Assembly (NCBI GenBank): GCA_963743615.1
Contig: CAVUQF010000003.1
Location: 60,999-124,998, forward strand
Source: an uncultured Nanoarchaeota archaeon
Lineage (GTDB): Archaea > Nanobdellota > Nanobdellia > Pacearchaeales > GW2011-AR1
Length of the DNA: 64,000 nucleotides
Direction of reading: 5' to 3'
Shown: positions 5,608-59,439 of the stretch, piece by piece
How the letters are laid out: every line of letters starts with the position of its first letter
Position numbering within the stretch: position 1 is the stretch's first letter
Program-made: the position numbers and the translations under genes
The notes under the pieces: generated by a model
Databases searched by the model: none
Seen by the model: the letters and a program-made list of their open reading frames with translations, nothing else
Told to the model about the DNA's origin: nothing

Positions 5608-6726
5608 TTAAAAATTTATAACTCCTCCGCCAAGGACCTCTTTTCCCATATATATAACAATTGCCTGGCCCTCTGAAACTCCAGTTATCTCCTTTCCTAA
5701 AATAACTTCAAATCTTCTTTTATTCTTATTATAAAATAGACTAGATGGAATTAGTTCTCCAACTTGGCGGATTCTTGAATAAACTTTATATTTTTTATCT
5801 TCCCTAACAGGATTTATCCAATGAGGTTCTGTGATAATTATCTTTTTTCGATAAAGTAATGGATCTCCTTCAGGAGCAGCAATTATTATATTTTTTTTTG
5901 CATCTTTCCTTGCTACATACCATCTTTTGAGATTTTTCTTGTCCTTGCCTTTCCTATTGACTTCAAATCCATACCTCGGTCCGAGGCGCTGTCCTATTGT
6001 ATAATAGTAAATTCCATCATGCTCTCCGATTACATTTCCTAAGGGGTCAAGAATTTTACCTTTTTTTGGTTTTATTTTCTTTTTAAGGAAATCTTTGAGA
6101 TTTATTTTTCCAATAAAACAAATTCCCACTGTCGACTTTTTATTAAAATTTGGAAGGCCTGCCTTTTCTGCAATTTCTCTTACTTTCTTTTTAGTATAGT
6201 CTCCTATAGGAAATAAAGTATTTTTTAATTCTTCTTGTGTTAGTGTGTAAAGGAAATAGGATTGATCTTTTGATTCATCTTTTGCTCTTAGTAATTTAAA
6301 CTTCTTTCCAAATCTTTTGATTCTTCCATAGTGCCCGGTCACAATAAAGTCTGCGCCAATTTTCTTTGCCTCTTTTATTAAATTGGGAAATTTTATTTTT
6401 TTGTTGCAGTCAATATCAGGATTGGGAGTTATCCCTTTTTTATATTTCTTAAACATTTCTTCTATTACTTGTTTTTTATATTCTCTTTCATAATCAACGG
6501 TTATGAGGGGAATATCCAGCATTGAAGCAATTTTCACCGCCATTCTTCTTTCATCTTTCCAGCTGCATTCTCCAAATTCATTCTTGGTATCCGACCAGTT
6601 TTTCATAAAGACTCCAACAATTTCATATCCCTCCTTTTTCATAATTAGTGCAGCTACGCTAGAATCAACTCCTCCAGACATTGCAACTAGAATTTTTAAC
6701 TTTTTCATGATATAAATTTGGAACAA
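5608..6726 (-). CDS. mnmA: tRNA-specific 2-thiouridylase MnmA-like PP-loop ATPase
   Basis: 'KILVAMSGGVDSSVAA' PP-loop; 372 aa with the C-terminal MnmA-type domains. Confidence 0.8.
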   Translation of the reverse strand: MFQIYIMKKLKILVAMSGGVDSSVAALIMKKEGYEIVGVFMKNWSDTKNEFGECSWKDERRMAVKIASMLDIPLITVDYEREYKKQVIEEMFKKYKKGITPNPDIDCNKKIKFPNLIKEAKKIGADFIVTGHYGRIKRFGKKFKLLRAKDESKDQSYFLYTLTQEELKNTLFPIGDYTKKKVREIAEKAGLPNFNKKSTVGICFIGKINLKDFLKKKIKPKKGKILDPLGNVIGEHDGIYYYTIGQRLGPRYGFEVNRKGKDKKNLKRWYVARKDAKKNIIIAAPEGDPLLYRKKIIITEPHWINPVREDKKYKVYSRIRQVGELIPSSLFYNKNKRRFEVILGKEITGVSEGQAIVIYMGKEVLGGGVINF

Positions 6727-6760: not shown

Positions 6761-7789
6761 ATGGGTTCCGCGAATGATTGGCTCGTTCCGCCTGCAATCC
6801 TTTATAATAATCCCGGAATAACTAAGGAAGAATTTGTTGATCTTCTTGATAAGACCAAGGCAGGAATTGGGAGTCTAGGGGATAATTTTGAAAATTGGAA
6901 AAAAGCTCCTTGGGATATTGATGGGAAGAATTTTGATTATCATAAGGGGTTGCATGGTCTGGCTGGAATTTTAGGTATGGACTATTCAGATGAGTTCAAG
7001 GCTATTTCTTGGAAAGATAAAGATTTAGAAGGATTTCCCTTATCTCCCCCTTATTTAGAAGTTAACCCTTTTTTTTCAGATTTTAAATGGCATTTGTCTT
7101 ATATGGTGCGTGTTCAAATTGGAAATGAGAATCCAAAGCAAAAGGAAGTGAAGGGATGGGAAAATAAATTTGTGAGGGAAGGAGATATTCTTACGGATGA
7201 TTATTACTTCGAATTTTTAGTAGACCAAGTTCTTGAAAGAAACCTTCTTTCAAGAGAAGATCGAGACGGGTGGGGAGAATTAAGACCCTTTCCAAGGAGA
7301 GTTGTAAAAATTTTAGGAAGGGAAGTTATACCTCAAGTGGAAAGTCATATCTTTTACTCTCTTCCATTATTATTAGAGAAGCACTCTTACTTTGATCCCA
7401 ACTTTATGTTTGATTTTTCTGCAGAGGCGGGAACATTTTCTAGCCGTCCTCTTACAAATGCGATGAATAAAAGGAGGGGTCTAAATTGGGAGCAAAGAAA
7501 TGGAAAGTATTATCTAGATATGAAAAAACTTCCAGCTATATCTTCATTCAACCCTGCTCAAGCAGGTTATACGGATTTGGTTGTGAGTTCGGAGGCTTTA
7601 AGGTTAAAAGCTTGGAAACTTTTTGCATTTCATGGGTATGAAAGAGACAGGACAGAATTTTTCTTTGAAGAATTTCCTGAAGCTAAAGAAGCGCATTCAA
7701 GGGCAGTTTGGGAGGGGTATACTTCAGAGTATGTAAGGAACAAAGGAATGACTATTAATGAATTCCTAAGATTTAGGATTGTTAGGTAA
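6761..7789 (+). CDS. hypothetical protein (342 aa, Trp/aromatic-rich, no signal peptide)
   Basis: Long intact ORF with no recognisable motif. Confidence 0.4.
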   Translation: MGSANDWLVPPAILYNNPGITKEEFVDLLDKTKAGIGSLGDNFENWKKAPWDIDGKNFDYHKGLHGLAGILGMDYSDEFKAISWKDKDLEGFPLSPPYLEVNPFFSDFKWHLSYMVRVQIGNENPKQKEVKGWENKFVREGDILTDDYYFEFLVDQVLERNLLSREDRDGWGELRPFPRRVVKILGREVIPQVESHIFYSLPLLLEKHSYFDPNFMFDFSAEAGTFSSRPLTNAMNKRRGLNWEQRNGKYYLDMKKLPAISSFNPAQAGYTDLVVSSEALRLKAWKLFAFHGYERDRTEFFFEEFPEAKEAHSRAVWEGYTSEYVRNKGMTINEFLRFRIVR

Positions 7790-10254: not shown

Positions 10255-11499
10255 TTAGAAGGAACCTGCAGGATACATTTGCCAAGAATTTCCTCCAGGG
10301 CATTCATAAGTGCCCCAACTTGAGGGGTCTGTTGCTTGCCAAATGCAATAATAGGAGTATACTGCACACCCAACTGGTCCTTTTGAGCTATATCCATTAG
10401 AAATTCCCCAATAAGTTCCATCGTTCTTGCAATATTCATATGTAACTCCGTTATTTGTTACACTACTTGTGCCGAAGGGGCAATTGGAGCAATCTGATCC
10501 AGACCATCCTTGACAATTCCCTGAGCCATCACAAGTTTCATCTGTACCGCAAGTTGTTCCTCTTGATAAATCGGAACTGGCACTTCCACTACATGTTCCA
10601 TCGCATCCGATTGTTTTTCCACCACAAATATCGCTTCCACAACTTTGTCCTAGATTAGAAGCGCAACATGAATATCCTTCATTAAGATCACCTTCTGGAG
10701 GGGGGAAATCATAAGAATTACCCCCTGCACAAGTCTTTCCACTTCCGCATGTTCCGCAGTTCAGAGTTCCTCCGCATCCATCACTAGACGTTCCACATGT
10801 ATCAACTAACTCTGAGCAGGTGTAACATGAACTAACACAATTCCCTGAGCCGTCACAGGTTGCATCTGTACCGCAACTTGTTCCTACTGATACATAAGAA
10901 GTTTCAGTACATGACCCATCACAAGCTGTTTTTCCATTGGTACAGGCATTTACCTGACAAGGGTTTCCCATATTAAAACTACAACAATTACCTCCCGCAT
11001 TACAACTCATCCCACTTCCAGTGCAAGTTCCACAAGTTCCTCCACATCCATCACTTCCACAATTTTTTCCAGTGCAGTCCGGAACACAGCAATAAGTTTT
11101 GCTATTGATTGCTTGTTGCAGACTTTCTCCCGATGCTAAATTAATTTCTGTAGCCAGATGACTTGGATTTGGAATGTTTACACTAGTGTAAGTTAATGGA
11201 CTAGAAGGATTGGGACAAAGCCTGTCTGGTGATTGTAGAGCTGAAAGAAGAGTCATTTCTCCATCCTTCACAGAAACCCAAATTTGGCTTGCATCATGTC
11301 CGGGATCAGGAGCAGTTCCTGCGGTATAAACATGAGTTTGTCCTAGAGTGCTAGATGTTATAGAGTTCAAATTTGTTGAAACTCCATCAATGCCCACAAC
11401 GACTTGATCTGCGGGGTGAGTTCCAGATGCGCTAATAAAAGTTATAAAGACAGAGACTAGCACTAAAGAAATTATCAGTATCCCCCTTTTATGGCTCAT
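10255..11499 (-). CDS. Secreted Cys/Gly/Thr-rich repetitive protein (414 aa)
   Basis: Signal peptide, then an N-terminal domain of roughly 150 aa, then more than 60 Cys in repeated modules (CGSDGCGGTCGTC, GTSCGTDATCDGSGNC, GTTCGTDETCDGSGNC). Confidence 0.6.
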   Translation of the reverse strand: MSHKRGILIISLVLVSVFITFISASGTHPADQVVVGIDGVSTNLNSITSSTLGQTHVYTAGTAPDPGHDASQIWVSVKDGEMTLLSALQSPDRLCPNPSSPLTYTSVNIPNPSHLATEINLASGESLQQAINSKTYCCVPDCTGKNCGSDGCGGTCGTCTGSGMSCNAGGNCCSFNMGNPCQVNACTNGKTACDGSCTETSYVSVGTSCGTDATCDGSGNCVSSCYTCSELVDTCGTSSDGCGGTLNCGTCGSGKTCAGGNSYDFPPPEGDLNEGYSCCASNLGQSCGSDICGGKTIGCDGTCSGSASSDLSRGTTCGTDETCDGSGNCQGWSGSDCSNCPFGTSSVTNNGVTYEYCKNDGTYWGISNGYSSKGPVGCAVYSYYCIWQATDPSSWGTYECPGGNSWQMYPAGSF

Positions 11500-14291: not shown

Positions 14292-14403
14292 AAATAGACT
14301 GCAGTGTAGAGGTTTTTATAATTTTATATATAGAAATATAGCAAGATTCTTTCTACTAACAAAGCTTTTAAATAAGTTTTATACCTTATCTGGATAATGA
14401 TGT

Positions 14404-14525
14404 GAGCCTATAGCTCAGCCAGGTTAGAGCACCGCTCTTATATGATTGCAGTTCATATGAACTGCATCTCTCCCAGATATGTCTAAGAGAGGCGGGGGTC
14501 CACGGTTCAAATCCGTGTAGGCTCA
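14404..14525 (+). tRNA. tRNA-Ile (anticodon UAU) with a 47-nt intron at the canonical 37/38 position
   Basis: Acceptor GAGCCTA/TAGGCTC, D-arm GCTC-AGCCAGGTTA-GAGC, anticodon stem CCGCT/GGCGG, loop C-T-TAT-A with the intron at 14443-14489, T-arm CACGG-TTCAAAT-CCGTG. Confidence 0.7.
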
Positions 14526-14547
14526 TAAATTAACTATCAAAAAGGAG

Positions 14548-15117: not shown

Positions 15118-15190
15118 GCCCCGATAGTTCAGAGGCCAAGAATGCGGCCCTTTCACGGCCGTGACCCGAGTTCGAATCTCGGTCGGGGCA
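15118..15190 (+). tRNA. tRNA-Glu (UUC)
   Basis: Acceptor GCCCCGA/TCGGGGC, anticodon stem CGGCC/GGCCG with loop CTTTCAC, T-arm CCGAG-TTCGAAT-CTCGG. Confidence 0.85.
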
Positions 15191-15271: not shown

Positions 15272-16624
15272 TCACCTTAAATGCTTTATCATATAAAATT
15301 CTTCTAAGCTGTAGCCTAATTTTCGATAATATTCACGTACTCCCACTCCAGATATTATTGATAACTTTCTGATATTATGTTGCCTTGTAATCTCTTCTGC
15401 TTTTTCCAGAAGCTTCTTCCCAAGCCCGATATGTTGTGTTGCATTCTCTTCTTTTTCTCCAATTTTAACTGAATGTCCGTAAACATGAAGTTCTCTTACA
15501 ATTGCGTTCCCATTTGAAATTCTTAATCTGAGCAAACCAAACAGAATATTGTTTTTATTTACAAATTGTAGGAAGAATTCTTTTCCATTTGAGGCATTGT
15601 ATTTTATAATATCCAGCTTTACTTTTGGATCTTCGTTTTTATTGAAGCCAACTTCTCTCATTCTTATTTCTTTTATCTTTTCTTTATTTTTCCTAAAGTT
15701 ATACTCAATATCTTTTCTTAGATCCAGTTTTTCAATTCCCTCTACTAATTTCTCTTTTGGAAATTCTCGTATTACTCTCATTACTCTACAATATTCTGGA
15801 ACTAGCCTCATCATTTTTTCAATAATTTCGCGCGTTTGTTCTTCTGTATATGGCTTGAAACCTATTATATTATAGGTTTTAGCAAGTGGAGAATCCTCAA
15901 TAATCTGACAAGGATAAATTTTTAGCTGATCTGGGCGGAATTCTTCATTGTCAAAGATTTGCTTGAATAATCTTAAATCTTTTTCAGGATTACTATAGGG
16001 GAGGCCGGGCATTATATGATATCCTAATTTGAAACCTGCATTCTTTAGGTTTTCGGATGCTTCTATTACATCTTTCACTTTATGTCCCCTATTTGTCTTT
16101 TTGTATATTTCATCATCAGGCATCTGAACTCCTATTTCAACTCTTGTGACTCCAAATTCAAGCATTCTCCTTATTTCTTCGGGGGAGCAAGTGTCCGGCC
16201 GGTTTTCTATACACATTGCGATGCATCTATGTTCTGCAGTTTCGTTCACTTTTTTTGCAGTTTCAAGATCAGGAGAATCAATTCCATTGAGTGCGTCATA
16301 GCATCTTTTTACGAATTCGTATTCATAATCTTTGGGATATTCTAAAAATGTTCCTCCAAGAATTATAATTTCAATTTTTTCTGTTGGATGGCCCATTTTA
16401 TTTAGTACATATAACCTGTTCTTTACCTGGGCATAGGGATCAAACTGCAAAGCTAAAGCTCTCATTATCGCAGGGCTTTTGTTTGTATAACTTTGGGGCA
16501 CATATTCTCCCCCGGGGCAGTAAATACATGTCCCGTGATTGCATTTTTTTGGTTTCAAAACAACGCTTAGGGGGGTTACTCCTGACATTGTTCTTACTGG
16601 TTTTTTTAATATTTTTTCTTCCAT
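15272..16624 (-). CDS. elp3: Elongator protein 3 homolog (tRNA U34 carboxymethyl-uridine synthase Elp3)
   Basis: Radical SAM cysteines 'CNHGTCIYCPGG' and a C-terminal GNAT motif 'QHIGLGKKLLEKAEE'. Confidence 0.75.
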   Translation of the reverse strand: MEEKILKKPVRTMSGVTPLSVVLKPKKCNHGTCIYCPGGEYVPQSYTNKSPAIMRALALQFDPYAQVKNRLYVLNKMGHPTEKIEIIILGGTFLEYPKDYEYEFVKRCYDALNGIDSPDLETAKKVNETAEHRCIAMCIENRPDTCSPEEIRRMLEFGVTRVEIGVQMPDDEIYKKTNRGHKVKDVIEASENLKNAGFKLGYHIMPGLPYSNPEKDLRLFKQIFDNEEFRPDQLKIYPCQIIEDSPLAKTYNIIGFKPYTEEQTREIIEKMMRLVPEYCRVMRVIREFPKEKLVEGIEKLDLRKDIEYNFRKNKEKIKEIRMREVGFNKNEDPKVKLDIIKYNASNGKEFFLQFVNKNNILFGLLRLRISNGNAIVRELHVYGHSVKIGEKEENATQHIGLGKKLLEKAEEITRQHNIRKLSIISGVGVREYYRKLGYSLEEFYMIKHLR

Positions 16625-33508: not shown

Positions 33509-34483
33509 TTACTTTTGGCTTTTTAATCTTTTAATCTCATCTCTTACTCGTACCATCTCCTCGAATATATCTCTTAATTTTGGATCAGTAGGATTTAGTT
33601 TTTGAACATCATTGTAAGAAATTTGAAGTTGATTGTAAGCCTGTATCAGGGAACCCAAACCTGCAGTGGAAGTAATTTGTTTTCGAAGATTTTGTTCTGA
33701 CTGCTGTTCTTGTTGTACCTTCTGATTCTCCTCCGCCATTTTTCTTTGTTCTTGGGCCTTTATAGCTGCTTCTTGTTTTGCATAATCTTCCGCAGCTACT
33801 GCCATTCCTTTTGCTCTTACTTCCTCGTTTCTTTCATCTCTAAGGTATCCTATGTCTTTTCTTTCGATTTTTTTGAGGTTTTGCTCTTGTCTTTCTTTCT
33901 TCTTCAGATTTAGGTTTATGTTAAAAGAAGGTCCTTGTACTTTTAGATCTGGAACTTCTCTTCTTCCTACTACTACTTTTTTTTTAAATAGAAATGCTAT
34001 TAGCCAAATGGCGAGAAGTCCTAGTCCAATATATGTAGCGAGTTCTGTTGAGTAAATTAAGCCGGAGCCTGCTAATCCTAAAAATACTAAACCCAAGATG
34101 AAGAGTGCCCATAACTTAAGTTTTATTAGCAGAAAAATAATGAATGCAACGGCAAGTATCGTTGCAATGGTATAAAGTGTATCATTAGAAATTCCAAATC
34201 CTGAAAATATATTCTGTACATTCGTTGCACTATTTATACCATAAACAATTAGTAATGATACACATATAGAGATTACAGCCGGAACTCCTTTGTTCCCTTT
34301 GAACATTTTGGATGTTGCAAAATATATTATCGCGAAGAATAAAATGAAAAGGACAGATAACAATACTGTGCTTGGGTCTATGGTTGAAAGAAAATCACTC
34401 AAAGAAAAAGTTTGGGCTGAGATGAATCCTATTGAAAATAAGGACATGATAATACCACTGAAAATCAGACCTTTTTTACCCAT
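33509..34483 (-). CDS. Membrane protein with C-terminal coiled-coil region (324 aa)
   Basis: Four N-terminal TM helices and a K/E/Q-rich coiled-coil tail. Confidence 0.5.
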   Translation of the reverse strand: MGKKGLIFSGIIMSLFSIGFISAQTFSLSDFLSTIDPSTVLLSVLFILFFAIIYFATSKMFKGNKGVPAVISICVSLLIVYGINSATNVQNIFSGFGISNDTLYTIATILAVAFIIFLLIKLKLWALFILGLVFLGLAGSGLIYSTELATYIGLGLLAIWLIAFLFKKKVVVGRREVPDLKVQGPSFNINLNLKKKERQEQNLKKIERKDIGYLRDERNEEVRAKGMAVAAEDYAKQEAAIKAQEQRKMAEENQKVQQEQQSEQNLRKQITSTAGLGSLIQAYNQLQISYNDVQKLNPTDPKLRDIFEEMVRVRDEIKRLKSQK

Positions 34484-57137: not shown

Positions 57138-58364
57138 ATGGATGAAATAAAAACTAAGCATAAAGTATTAAGATATTCTCTCTTTACATTATTTGGAATT
57201 CTTTTGCTGGTTGTAGGAGTTTATGCTACCACAATAATCTCGGATCAGCAAACTTCTACTCCTTATATAAATGCTTCAAATATCTCATGGATTACGAATA
57301 ATAACAAAGAAGTTGTATTCGAGGGCGATAGCATTACTGATTATGTCAATAAGCCAAACTCGACATGGAGCTTGAATGTTTCTAACTCTTCCTTGTTTGC
57401 TGATGCAGTTTTTTATAATGTTGCAATGACTGGAGATACTGTCTGTAATATGACGACAGAATATGCTTCTCAAGTCCATCCTCTCGCTCCAAAGAATAAT
57501 CAGACAAATGCGTACTTCTTTTTATGGGCCGGAACAAATGATCTTTATTATGATTCAAACTCTTCAACCATTCTCTCTTGCCTTGAGATAGAATGGGCTA
57601 TGGCTCGTGCAGATGGATTTAAAGTCGTTGCGGTTACAATCACAAATAGATCGGGAGTATATATCTTAAATGGAACACAAGAGAGCAATAGAACTGCATT
57701 GAACGGAGGAATAATAGCAGCTTCTTCCCAATATGATTATTTGATAAGAGCCGATTTGATTCTTCCAGATCCAACAAACACAACCTACTTTGTTGATGGA
57801 TTGCATCCAACTCCCGCAGGTTCTTATCTTATAGCTTCGAATTTTGTCAATAACTTTTATTCTAATCCTTATAATGAACTGAATAACTGGGAGGGAAATC
57901 TAGGAATTGGAACAACAACTCCCCCAACTGCATTAACTATAGTTGCCCCAGAAAGTTCAACCAATGGAATATTAAAGTTGCAAGTTCAGAATGGTCAGCC
58001 ATTCGATTTTGCAGGAATTTCTTTCTTTGCAAAAAGTCAATCTCCGACAGCAGGATCTCTTAATTGGATGATTTCAACAAATTATAACCAATATGGAGAG
58101 CTTAATTTTCTTAGAAGCACCAGTTCATCAACAAATCCTACAATAAGCACTTTAGATCTTATGAGTAGCGGAAATGTTGGAGTGAATACAACAGCTCCAA
58201 TTTCAACTTTGGAAGTAAATGGAAATGCAACAATAGACCAGCTTATGAATCTCTCTGTGATGAATATTCCCCCATGTGGAGCTTCGACTAATGGAAGCAT
58301 AGCTCGAAATTCAAGTGGAGATTATGTATGCGGAGCAAACGGAGTATGGAAGTTCTTGGGATAA
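57138..58364 (+). CDS. Membrane-anchored extracellular SGNH/GDSL hydrolase with a fibre-like C-terminal region (paralog 2)
   Basis: Shares with paralog 1 the N-terminal 'TIISDQQ..T.YINASNIS' and the C-terminal 'SGNVGVNTTAPISTLEVNGN' and 'PPCGASTNGSIARNSSGDYVCGANGVWKFL'. SGNH blocks 'FEGDSIT', 'GTNDL' and 'DGLHPT'. Confidence 0.6.
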   Translation: MDEIKTKHKVLRYSLFTLFGILLLVVGVYATTIISDQQTSTPYINASNISWITNNNKEVVFEGDSITDYVNKPNSTWSLNVSNSSLFADAVFYNVAMTGDTVCNMTTEYASQVHPLAPKNNQTNAYFFLWAGTNDLYYDSNSSTILSCLEIEWAMARADGFKVVAVTITNRSGVYILNGTQESNRTALNGGIIAASSQYDYLIRADLILPDPTNTTYFVDGLHPTPAGSYLIASNFVNNFYSNPYNELNNWEGNLGIGTTTPPTALTIVAPESSTNGILKLQVQNGQPFDFAGISFFAKSQSPTAGSLNWMISTNYNQYGELNFLRSTSSSTNPTISTLDLMSSGNVGVNTTAPISTLEVNGNATIDQLMNLSVMNIPPCGASTNGSIARNSSGDYVCGANGVWKFLG

Positions 58365-58365
58365 G

Positions 58366-59439
58366 ATGGAAACTAATTTAAAAAAAAAGACTGAACTGAT
58401 TTTTCTTTTAGCTTTTGCCTGCCTGATAATTCCTCTTGCTTCTGCCGTAACTTTAAGTTCTGGGGTATTCTTTGTAAGTGGGTTAAATTCTAGCATAACT
58501 ATTAATTTTCCCGTGGCTTTTGATTTATTAAACATCTCTAACGACTCTATAGTTTTTTACAATCTTAGTTATGTTCATCCTTCTAGCTGTAATGGGCAAT
58601 CTTCATTTTATAATGTTTATAGTTATGCTACTTCAAATCAAAATACTACTCTAGACCAGGTATTGCCTAGTATATCTTGTGTTGTGACCGCTAATAGCTC
58701 TTCTTCGGGGTCTGGATCAGGGGTAACTAATTATCCTCTGCTTACAACAGTTAATTCTTCCCAATCCAACGAAGCAAATTTTTCTTTAAGTACGTCCGTG
58801 TTACAAGTATTACCAATAATAAATGAGAGCCAACTTACAACAATAGAATTAGGTAATTTTTCTGGGAGTTTGACTCGAGTGGATATTATCACAAACTATA
58901 CTGTTTCAAATGTTTCTGTAAATATTTCACAAGTAAGTATAATATATCCCAATTTAGAGATAAATATTTCCGGATTTAATTATCAGTCCTTCAAAATTAC
59001 AACTCTTGGGATAAATGATTCATTAATAAAAAGTGTAACGCTGGATTTTCGTGTGAACAAAAGTTGGATTATCGTTAATAAGCTGAATTTTTCTAAGGTA
59101 ATACTACTTAGGAATACGGGGGGTGTCAAATGGATGCAATTGCAGACGATCTTTAATTCAAATGATTCTAACTATTATTATTATAATGCTACCTCTCCTG
59201 GATTTTCAAGTTATACCATATTTGCTCCATTAATTAATCCGGTATTTATTGGAGGCAGCGGGAATCGTCTGAATAATAACCTGGGAGTTATTGTCTCTAT
59301 TTTGGCAATAGTTTTTATAATTATTTGGGAGATTTTACAAATGAGGAAAAGGATATTATTCGGCAGTTCTCACAGCTTTCTTAAATTTATTAAAAAAAGA
59401 CATTATAAAAAGTTTTCTTTGAGAAAGAAGTGGAAGTAA
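58366..59439 (+). CDS. N-glycosylation-rich surface protein with signal peptide and a C-terminal TM anchor plus basic tail
   Basis: Starts 'METNLKKKTELIFLLAFACLIIPLASA'; many N-x-S/T sequons; C-terminal 'GVIVSILAIVFIIIWEIL' followed by K/R-rich residues. Confidence 0.55.
   Translation: METNLKKKTELIFLLAFACLIIPLASAVTLSSGVFFVSGLNSSITINFPVAFDLLNISNDSIVFYNLSYVHPSSCNGQSSFYNVYSYATSNQNTTLDQVLPSISCVVTANSSSSGSGSGVTNYPLLTTVNSSQSNEANFSLSTSVLQVLPIINESQLTTIELGNFSGSLTRVDIITNYTVSNVSVNISQVSIIYPNLEINISGFNYQSFKITTLGINDSLIKSVTLDFRVNKSWIIVNKLNFSKVILLRNTGGVKWMQLQTIFNSNDSNYYYYNATSPGFSSYTIFAPLINPVFIGGSGNRLNNNLGVIVSILAIVFIIIWEILQMRKRILFGSSHSFLKFIKKRHYKKFSLRKKWK

Follow-up and report, generated by a model that had tools for sequence, protein, structure and literature searches.

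In a 64,000-nucleotide window from an uncultured Nanoarchaeota archaeon (contig CAVUQF010000003.1; by "the window" we mean this whole stretch of DNA), an intron-interrupted transfer RNA (tRNA) gene with the anticodon UAU lies at positions 14404-14525 of the forward strand. We consider it very probable that this is a functional archaeal minor tRNA-Ile(UAU) gene, carrying a bulge-helix-bulge (BHB) intron between tRNA positions 37 and 38, and that its product reads AUA in place of tRNA-Ile2(CAU) and TiaS. Reading AUA without misreading AUG is a classic decoding problem that has been solved differently in each domain of life. Intron-containing tRNA-Ile(UAU) is already known from archaea, including DPANN archaea; only the conserved intron architecture and the alternative pairing described below go beyond the published record.

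The gene scores 54.6 bits against the Rfam tRNA family RF00005 (E of 5e-9 for the whole window), above the curated gathering score of 29 and over the full model, which makes it a member of the family. The alignment spans all 71 model positions (1-71) with a single 48-nt insertion after ...CUCUUAUA (...CCGCU-CUUAUA). ARAGORN makes no call at the locus under default settings, because its intron detection is then off; with introns allowed, its call is tRNA-Ile (tat), spanning 14403-14526, and the 47-nt intron starts at position 41, or 14443 of the window. The anticodon TAT (UAU) occupies 14439-14441 and has AUA as its cognate codon. After splicing, the loop reads C32 U33 U34 A35 U36 A37 A38, with the regular 7 nt, U33, and a purine at position 37. 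Since the anticodon lies 5' of the 5' splice site, a shift in the 3' register cannot alter UAU. The sequence-only reading of this DNA had placed a 47-nt insertion at 14443-14489 between positions 37 and 38, which ARAGORN and the BHB scan bear out to the base, and had proposed the loop C-U-UAU-A-A with UAU decoding AUA, on which ARAGORN and the BHB splicing register agree. The parts of the gene are as follows.

14404-14442, forward strand: 5' exon, tRNA positions 1-37, comprising the acceptor strand GAGCCUA, the D arm, the 5' strand of the anticodon stem (CCGCU), and the loop residues C32, U33, U34, A35, U36, and A37 (Rfam alignment, ARAGORN, BHB scan)
14439-14441, forward strand: anticodon TAT (Rfam alignment, ARAGORN, direct reading)
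14443-14489, forward strand: intron, 47 nt (ARAGORN, BHB scan, shuffles; the site is common to all 64 intron-containing homologues listed)
14490-14525, forward strand: 3' exon, positions 38-73, comprising A38, the 3' strand of the anticodon stem (GGCGG), the variable loop GGGUC, the T arm, the 3' acceptor strand, and A73 (Rfam alignment, sequence)
14366-14383, forward strand: candidate archaeal TATA promoter element, made up of the A/T boxes TTTTAAATA (-38 to -30) and TTTTATA (-27 to -21) (direct reading)

The gene does not encode CCA. Its TTTTAAATA box looks like an archaeal TATA element, and TTTAAATA-like boxes stand at about the same distance upstream in many homologous loci.

These features suggest the following course of events. 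Transcription would yield a precursor body of 122 nt in which the 47-nt intron splits the anticodon loop after position 37. The CUUA of positions 32-35, which contains the first two bases of the anticodon, would pair with the UAAG close to the intron's 3' end, forming the 4-bp BHB helix flanked by two 3-nt bulges. The splicing endonuclease would then cut between 14442 and 14443 and between 14489 and 14490, and the exons, once sealed by a ligase of the RtcB type, would give a 75-nt tRNA (before CCA addition) with the loop C-U-UAU-A-A. Once charged by IleRS, this tRNA would read AUA through a U34-A pair, standing in for the usual archaeal tRNA-Ile2(CAU) with TiaS and agmatidine. The gene itself is a tRNA-Ile(GAU) paralogue whose G34 has changed to U.

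Splice sites and the BHB motif

We scanned 14404-14525 for the strict hBHBh' motif, in which a central 4-bp helix has a 3-nt bulge on either side and, beyond each bulge, an outer helix. The gene contains one strong motif only, which places the intron at 14443-14489, the canonical 37/38 site. Its elements, all found by the scan, are listed here.

Anticodon stem: helix h, CCGCU/GGCGG, 5 bp
14437-14440, forward strand: exon strand CUUA of the central helix H (positions 32-35), paired with UAAG at 14484-14487
14484-14487, forward strand: intron strand UAAG of helix H (also from the homologue alignment)
14441-14443, forward strand: 5' bulge U36-A37-U(i1), with predicted cleavage between 14442 and 14443
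14488-14490, forward strand: 3' bulge A-G-A38, with predicted cleavage between 14489 and 14490
14444-14446, forward strand: 5' strand GAU of the outer helix h', 3 bp, paired with GUC at 14481-14483

The motif in the window thus has both 3-nt bulges and the 4-bp helix, with 5 bp in h and 3 bp in h', where at least 2 are required. The archaeal splicing endonuclease cuts after the second nucleotide of each bulge, a rule by which exactly 14443-14489 would be excised. When the intron was shuffled, a strict BHB in the 37/38 register appeared in 5/2000 cases. Conservation supports the central helix: in alignment A1, made of 35 homologues with introns of at most 49 nt, H is paired in 95.7% of cells and the anticodon stem in 100%. 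Among the 64 homologues listed, the intron strand of H is UAAG in 51, GAAG in 7, UGAG in 3, and UAGG in 3. The predicted exon-intron junctions, for which the earlier reading had named a BHB search as a check, are supported by that search.

A different splicing register, giving another anticodon or another identity, is exceedingly unlikely, even though ARAGORN at first sight offers one: with introns allowed, it labels orthologues as tRNA-Ser(UGA) in loci L005 and L006 and as tRNA-Glu(CUC) in L007, and the stretch ...CUUAUAUGA... does hold UGA just 3' of the anticodon. However, ARAGORN places introns without regard to the BHB. In all three loci the 5-bp anticodon stem takes part in a single BHB, the one at 37/38, with the loop CUUAUA/A, and the exons are nearly identical to those of the window and to tRNA-Ile(GAU), unlike a class II tRNA-Ser. 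Other BHB-like matches have flanking helices of 2-4 bp and, if used, would cost the tRNA part of its D or T arm; the second match within the window gene, with flanking helices of 2 bp, was rejected because it would destroy the T arm. We regard the Ser(UGA) and Glu(CUC) labels (L005 3826-3948, L006 5734-5876, L007 2321-2447) as artefacts of intron placement. Another BHB register yielding another anticodon, the outcome that would have overturned the earlier reading, was thus represented by nothing more than weak motifs that destroy tRNA arms. Annotations affected by such misses and mislabels (Ser, Glu) could wrongly report a genome as missing its AUA decoder.

Some observations weigh against a spliced, AUA-specific tRNA. 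Helix h' is weak in many homologues: 75% of its cells are paired, its second and third positions are unpaired in 12-14 of the 35 aligned sequences, and often only 1 bp is left, which corresponds to a relaxed motif. The minimum-free-energy (MFE) fold of the precursor differs from the BHB fold; constraining the anticodon arm and intron to the BHB costs 6.1 kcal/mol in the window and 3.5 kcal/mol on average over 62 homologues. On the decoding side, an engineered U34 tRNA-Ile in haloarchaea also bound AUG and AUU (PMC3895270), which implies that decoding fidelity needs an additional factor.

The BHB fold is the MFE fold in 0/62 homologues, and other intron-containing pre-tRNAs of related loci have MFE folds that also lie about 2 kcal/mol away from the BHB, so a non-BHB minimum is not disqualifying. 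We set MFE folding aside as a test for the BHB, since it never returns the motif in the 62 homologues and deviates for other pre-tRNAs too. Among the ~60 open reading frames (ORFs) of the 64-kb window, with unannotated ORFs re-scanned at E <= 0.05, no Pfam match to a splicing endonuclease, RtcB, or pseudouridine synthase was found; cleavage and ligation at these sites are predicted from the motif.

Isoleucine identity, AUA reading, and distribution

The body of the spliced tRNA is of the isoleucine type. Of its 75 positions, 70 match tRNA-Ile(GAU) from a related genome (L028), A73 and the acceptor stem among them, and 43-49 match Met, Asn, Glu, and Lys tRNAs. The five differences from the GAU tRNA are G34U and compensatory changes in the pairs 7:66 (G-C to A-U) and 28:42 (U-A to C-G). 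This near-identity indicates that the UAU gene is a tRNA-Ile(GAU) paralogue in which the wobble base has changed, an origin that has also been proposed for the Korarchaeum gene (PMC6000648). The isoleucine identity claimed in the sequence-only reading is supported by this match, and charging by IleRS would follow from it.

The codon AUA is in heavy use: over 17 genes of the window, ATA occurs at 36.8 per 1000 codons and accounts for 39% of those for Ile. The window MCM gene has 33 ATA positions, at which 78 orthologues have Ile in 63%, Val in 18%, Leu in 12%, and Met in 1.8% of cases. The ATT and ATC positions show a residue profile equal to this, and ATG positions have Met in 69%. The profile indicates that AUA means isoleucine and that the UAU tRNA is its cognate reader. 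It also bears on the idea that AUA is reassigned (to Met, say, as mitochondria do) or that the tRNA reads AUG as well. U34 can wobble with G, and the haloarchaeal binding to AUG cited above would fit such a scheme; the Ile-like AUA positions and the tRNA-Ile(GAU) backbone speak so clearly for isoleucine that we give reassignment hardly any credence, while a low level of AUG misreading is compatible with the data.

The gene is widespread in related genomes. Orthologues adjoin the MCM gene in six metagenome-assembled genomes (MAGs) from GTDB (L003-L007 and L009), with introns of 47-66 nt, the same BHB, and the loop CUUAUA/A. A pattern scan of metagenome contigs for the D arm and anticodon arm, in which position 34 could be A, C, or T, returned at least 120 stretches; together with the earlier loci, it gave at least 108 distinct UAU tRNAs. 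At least 64 distinct sequences combine a DPANN-type backbone with an intron, which always lies at 37/38 and measures 44-158 nt (mode 46-48), and at least 7 have the DPANN-type backbone and are intronless. Introns are kept by 90% of the DPANN-type UAU genes listed versus 8/19 GAU genes (Fisher p = 3e-5; the two sets are unequally sampled). In related MAGs, 37/38 introns are also frequent in tRNA-Ile(GAU) genes (8/19; loci L012, L028, L032, L034, L039, L043, and L053), but they measure just 17-44 nt and do not share the architecture of the UAU intron.

This conservation argues strongly against a decaying or non-functional tRNA pseudogene with a chance insertion. Such a pseudogene would account for the miss by default ARAGORN and for the non-BHB MFE fold, but the at least 64 distinct intron-containing homologues keep all stems and an invariant CUUAUA...A loop, and both their anticodon stem (pair 28:42: 19 CG, 16 UA) and their intron hairpin show compensatory changes. 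TATA-like boxes are kept upstream, and a very frequent AUA codon needs a decoder. We consider a pseudogene very improbable.

The sequence-only reading had called a UAU tRNA-Ile a rarity, naming Nanoarchaeum and Korarchaeum. For cultured archaea or complete genomes this matches the literature: the tRNA was reported in 2/167 complete archaeal genomes (PMC6000648), and the tRNAscan-SE 2.0 paper gives the same two organisms, Nanoarchaeum equitans and Korarchaeum cryptofilum (PMC8450103). Beyond these genomes the tRNA is no rarity: ARMAN archaea were already known to have it (PMC3239211), and it is present in six related MAGs and at least 64 distinct DPANN-type metagenome sequences. The tRNA is rare among cultured archaea and common in this uncultured DPANN lineage. 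A "eukaryote-like" solution, a genomic UAU on an intron-containing precursor, is therefore the norm in a large uncultured DPANN lineage and no oddity.

Whether the UAU tRNA replaces tRNA-Ile2(CAU) depends on the rest of the decoding apparatus. ARAGORN finds no tRNA-Ile2(CAU) in the 64-kb window. None of the ~60 window ORFs has a TiaS-like Pfam match, a result obtained with no TiaS query sequence on a small part of the genome. The pattern scan, which allowed C34, found no DPANN-type CAU tRNA among the stretches listed; its only two C34 matches there are both non-DPANN, with a bacterial-type backbone. In the library searched, no paper connects DPANN or the Woese-, Pace-, and Nanoarchaeota with TiaS or agmatidine. 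The two systems might coexist, making the UAU tRNA a redundant extra AUA reader, and TiaS could lie elsewhere in the genome, given that 64 kb were covered. We nevertheless think this improbable: every archaeon reported with tRNA-Ile(UAU) is without tRNA-Ile(CAU) (PMC3239211, PMC8450103, PMC3575796), in ARMAN the absence of TiaS homologues is explicitly stated (PMC3239211), and the window and the stretches listed agree with this pattern. By analogy with these precedents, both TiaS and tRNA-Ile2(CAU) are probably absent from the whole genome, leaving the UAU tRNA as the reader of AUA.

The scan also returned tRNAs of another kind. At least 34 distinct tRNA-Ile(UAU) sequences are 74 nt long and intronless, with a different backbone (GCGCC/GGGCG..., T loop GGTTCRAGTCC); they occur in L086, L088, L094, L099, L110, L120, L125, L139, L143, and about 25 more loci. 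In the loci checked they stand beside bacterial genes (FtsH, VanW with a peptidoglycan-binding domain, ValRS), so uncultured bacteria with a UAU tRNA-Ile seem to be numerous; one such tRNA sits on a 976-kb contig (L125). In L172, a 191-nt stretch on the minus strand, the anticodon loop of one tRNA-Ile(UAU)-like gene contains another, complete bacterial-type tRNA-Ile(UAU): the 5' half is followed by the full tRNA, a spacer, and the 3' half. Either a nested duplication or an artefact of assembly could explain this.

Conserved intron architecture and helix X

Two further elements recur within the intron.

14447-14466, forward strand: intron hairpin 1, 8 bp (UGCAGUUC/GAACUGCA), with the tetraloop AUAU (covariation, RNAalifold consensus)
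14468-14472, forward strand: CUCUC, 5' strand of a pairing that we call helix X (MFE fold; covariation with the bulge dinucleotide in 62 homologues)

All 8 pairs of hairpin 1 have changed on both sides in alignment A1, in which 88.6% of cells are paired versus 39-47% in slid controls. The tetraloop of the homologues is mostly GNNA/GUUA, and the intron residues i2-i3 are GA in 63 of the 64 homologues listed. Larger introns carry their insertions 3' of the 5-mer.

The CUCUC 5-mer is complementary to GAGAG at 14487-14491, which consists of the last base of H, the 3' bulge (A, G, and A38), and G39, and this helix X is present in the MFE fold of the window precursor. The bulge dinucleotide varies among the 64 homologues listed (AA in 35, AG in 20, UG in 5, GG in 3, GA in 1), and the 5-mer tracks it: AA goes with CUUUC, AG with CUCUC, UG with CUCAC, CUCGC, or CUUGC, and GG with CUCUC or AUCCC. 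In permutation tests that treat sequences irrespective of relatedness, helix X has 5 pairs in 36/62 homologues and 4 pairs in 15/62, a result that 0/2000 permutations of the 3' 5-mer reach; with the register fixed by the constant partners, both variable pairs form in 30/55 (expected, 18.5 ± 2.2), which 0/5000 permutations match. We used permutation because the MAFFT alignment slips in register where hairpin lengths differ, leaving helix X only 73% paired; RNAalifold does not recover helix X from that alignment. In 54/62 homologues the MFE fold pairs two or more of the three bulge nucleotides, versus 6/13 among other intron-containing pre-tRNAs of related loci.

On these folds, helix X would be an alternative to the splicing-competent structure, burying the 3' splice site and excluding the unpaired 3' bulge on which the endonuclease depends. 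We also considered an excised or circular intron as its context and rejected this, as position 2 of the 5-mer is U and would pair with A38 in the precursor. In the AG-bulge group, the U of the 5-mer would, after circularisation, face i1, which is mostly U. The pattern of pairing partners thus favours action of helix X in the precursor.

Nothing in the intron resembles a known RNA element of another kind: between 14350 and 14580, no Rfam family other than tRNA matches at E < 0.3, so neither box C/D nor other RNA was detected, and the 47-nt intron has neither a C box (RUGAUGA) nor a D box (CUGA), as a C/D guide would. Among the longer introns, the one in L150 has 158 nt. Those in L123 and L140 (94 and 92 nt), otherwise different, share a near-identical insert of ~45 nt just upstream of the UAAG strand, AUCGGUUGC[G/A]GGAUUCAUAAAAACCCGCUGGAGGUUUUUAUUC, a resemblance that suggests small insertions spreading between introns.

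Genomic neighbourhood and comparison with known systems

The window is densely coded, with 34% G+C, and its proteins are archaeal: an MCM with an archaeal winged helix, a ThrRS with an archaea-specific editing domain, a family B DNA polymerase, Cdc48, RFC, FEN1, TFS, and aIF2-beta. The MCM gene lies 112 nt from the tRNA-Ile(UAU) gene on the opposite strand. The closest relatives of its product among GTDB species representatives come from Nanoarchaeota, Pacearchaeota, and Woesearchaeota MAGs (64-89% identity), and metagenome contigs from ENA and Logan encode MCM proteins identical to it. The DPANN-like affiliation first suggested from the tRNA alone is thus supported by the proteins of the window.

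ARAGORN finds only Asn, Ile(UAU), Glu, and Lys tRNAs in the 64 kb. Two neighbours of the gene deserve mention.

15118-15190, forward strand: tRNA-Glu(UUC), which also accompanies tRNA-Ile(UAU) in the six related MAG loci (ARAGORN)
15272-16624, reverse strand: Elp3-like gene (radical SAM, Radical_SAM_C, and GNAT domains), 750 bp from tRNA-Ile(UAU) and 80 bp from tRNA-Glu(UUC) (Pfam)

Across the 120 metagenome loci listed, tRNA-Glu(UUC) accounts for 41 ARAGORN calls. Elp3 homologues lie 0.05-7 kb from the UAU tRNA in six other loci (L005, L006, L093, L100, L138, and L144); Elp3 is the type of enzyme that modifies the wobble base U34. The window also encodes a full-length MnmA-type tRNA 2-thiouridylase at 5608-6726 on the reverse strand (PF03054, E 2e-74, with PRC-barrel and C-terminal domains). 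Archaea usually make s2U34 with Ncs6/NcsA-type enzymes, and the MnmA-type gene may be a bacterial acquisition that affects wobble-U chemistry. The Elp3-like and MnmA-like genes give the context for the state of U34 (unmodified, Psi, or xm5U) that would keep this tRNA from misreading AUG.

Elsewhere in the window, three ORFs have no Pfam match at E <= 0.05: 10255-11499 (reverse, 414 aa), 6761-7789 (forward, 342 aa), and 33509-34483 (reverse, 324 aa). A fourth, at 58315-59439 (forward, 374 aa), has only a faint, non-significant match to DUF5963 (E 0.041). The 414-aa ORF is kept beside MCM and an OB-fold protein on the identical metagenome contigs L001 and L002.

We tentatively propose, as an idea whose odds we put well below even, that the intron is a conserved ~46-nt element that switches the precursor between a BHB form, with the anticodon paired, and a form with the 3' splice site buried and the anticodon exposed. 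This might coordinate the moment of splicing with modification of the anticodon, for instance by shielding U34 from the neighbouring Elp3-type enzyme or by permitting intron-dependent modification as in the yeast tRNA-Ile(UAU). In yeast, the intron of this tRNA is required for Pus1-dependent Psi34/36 and blocks Elp-dependent ncm5U34 (PMC11408192). The Elp3-like neighbour and the retention of the intron would fit a yeast-like role, by analogy, and are leads at most. If true, the switch would explain why 90% of the DPANN-type UAU genes listed retain an intron. The intron architecture and the alternative pairing, if real, would offer a handle on the persistent introns of tRNA-Ile(UAU) in both archaea and eukaryotes.

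Known systems resemble the window gene to different degrees. The intron of the Haloferax pre-tRNA-Trp encodes a box C/D guide; it is likewise a structured archaeal 37/38 tRNA intron and one with a function beyond its own removal, whereas the window intron has no C/D boxes and no Rfam match and, at 47 nt, is too short for a complete C/D guide. Among bacteria, Mycoplasma mobile, Bifidobacterium, and Neorickettsia read AUA with a genomic UAU and lack the enzyme that modifies C34 (PMC3575796). Unlike the window gene, these bacterial tRNAs are intronless and have an unrelated backbone, and U34 is unmodified in M. mobile (PMC3575796).

Eukaryotic nuclear tRNA-Ile(UAU) shares with the window gene the UAU anticodon, the 37/38 intron, and a helix between anticodon and intron (PMC11408192, PMC6582322), and the window tRNA has an Elp3 homologue nearby. 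Archaeal splicing differs in that it recognises the BHB and uses no ruler mechanism, and a modification role of the window intron is at present conjectural.

The closest likeness, compared here by description, is to ARMAN-2, -4, and -5 (Fujishima et al. 2011, PMC3239211). These are DPANN archaea in which tRNA-Ile(UAU) is present and both TiaS and tRNA-Ile(CAU) are absent, so that the tRNA is interpreted as a substitute for them, and in which the intron lies at 37/38 within an hBHBh' motif. The ARMAN-2 pre-tRNA-Ile(UAU) has a 25-nt 37/38 intron in a strict hBHBh' that is cut in vitro by its own endonuclease (PMC3239211). In contrast, the window intron is longer (47 nt) and contains both a conserved hairpin of 8 bp and a further helix that covaries; it also comes from another lineage, one that is Nanoarchaeota/Pacearchaeota/Woesearchaeota-like.

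The "Ile3" tRNAs of N. equitans and K. cryptofilum (PMC8450103, PMC6000648) are, like the product of the window gene, archaeal UAU tRNA-Ile species; they replace tRNA-Ile2(CAU), as the window tRNA probably does. The K. cryptofilum gene is similar also in being a GAU paralogue with an intron, while the GAU copy of that organism has none. These two organisms are the sole cases in 167-217 complete archaeal genomes, whereas in the lineage of the window tRNA-Ile(UAU) is widespread.

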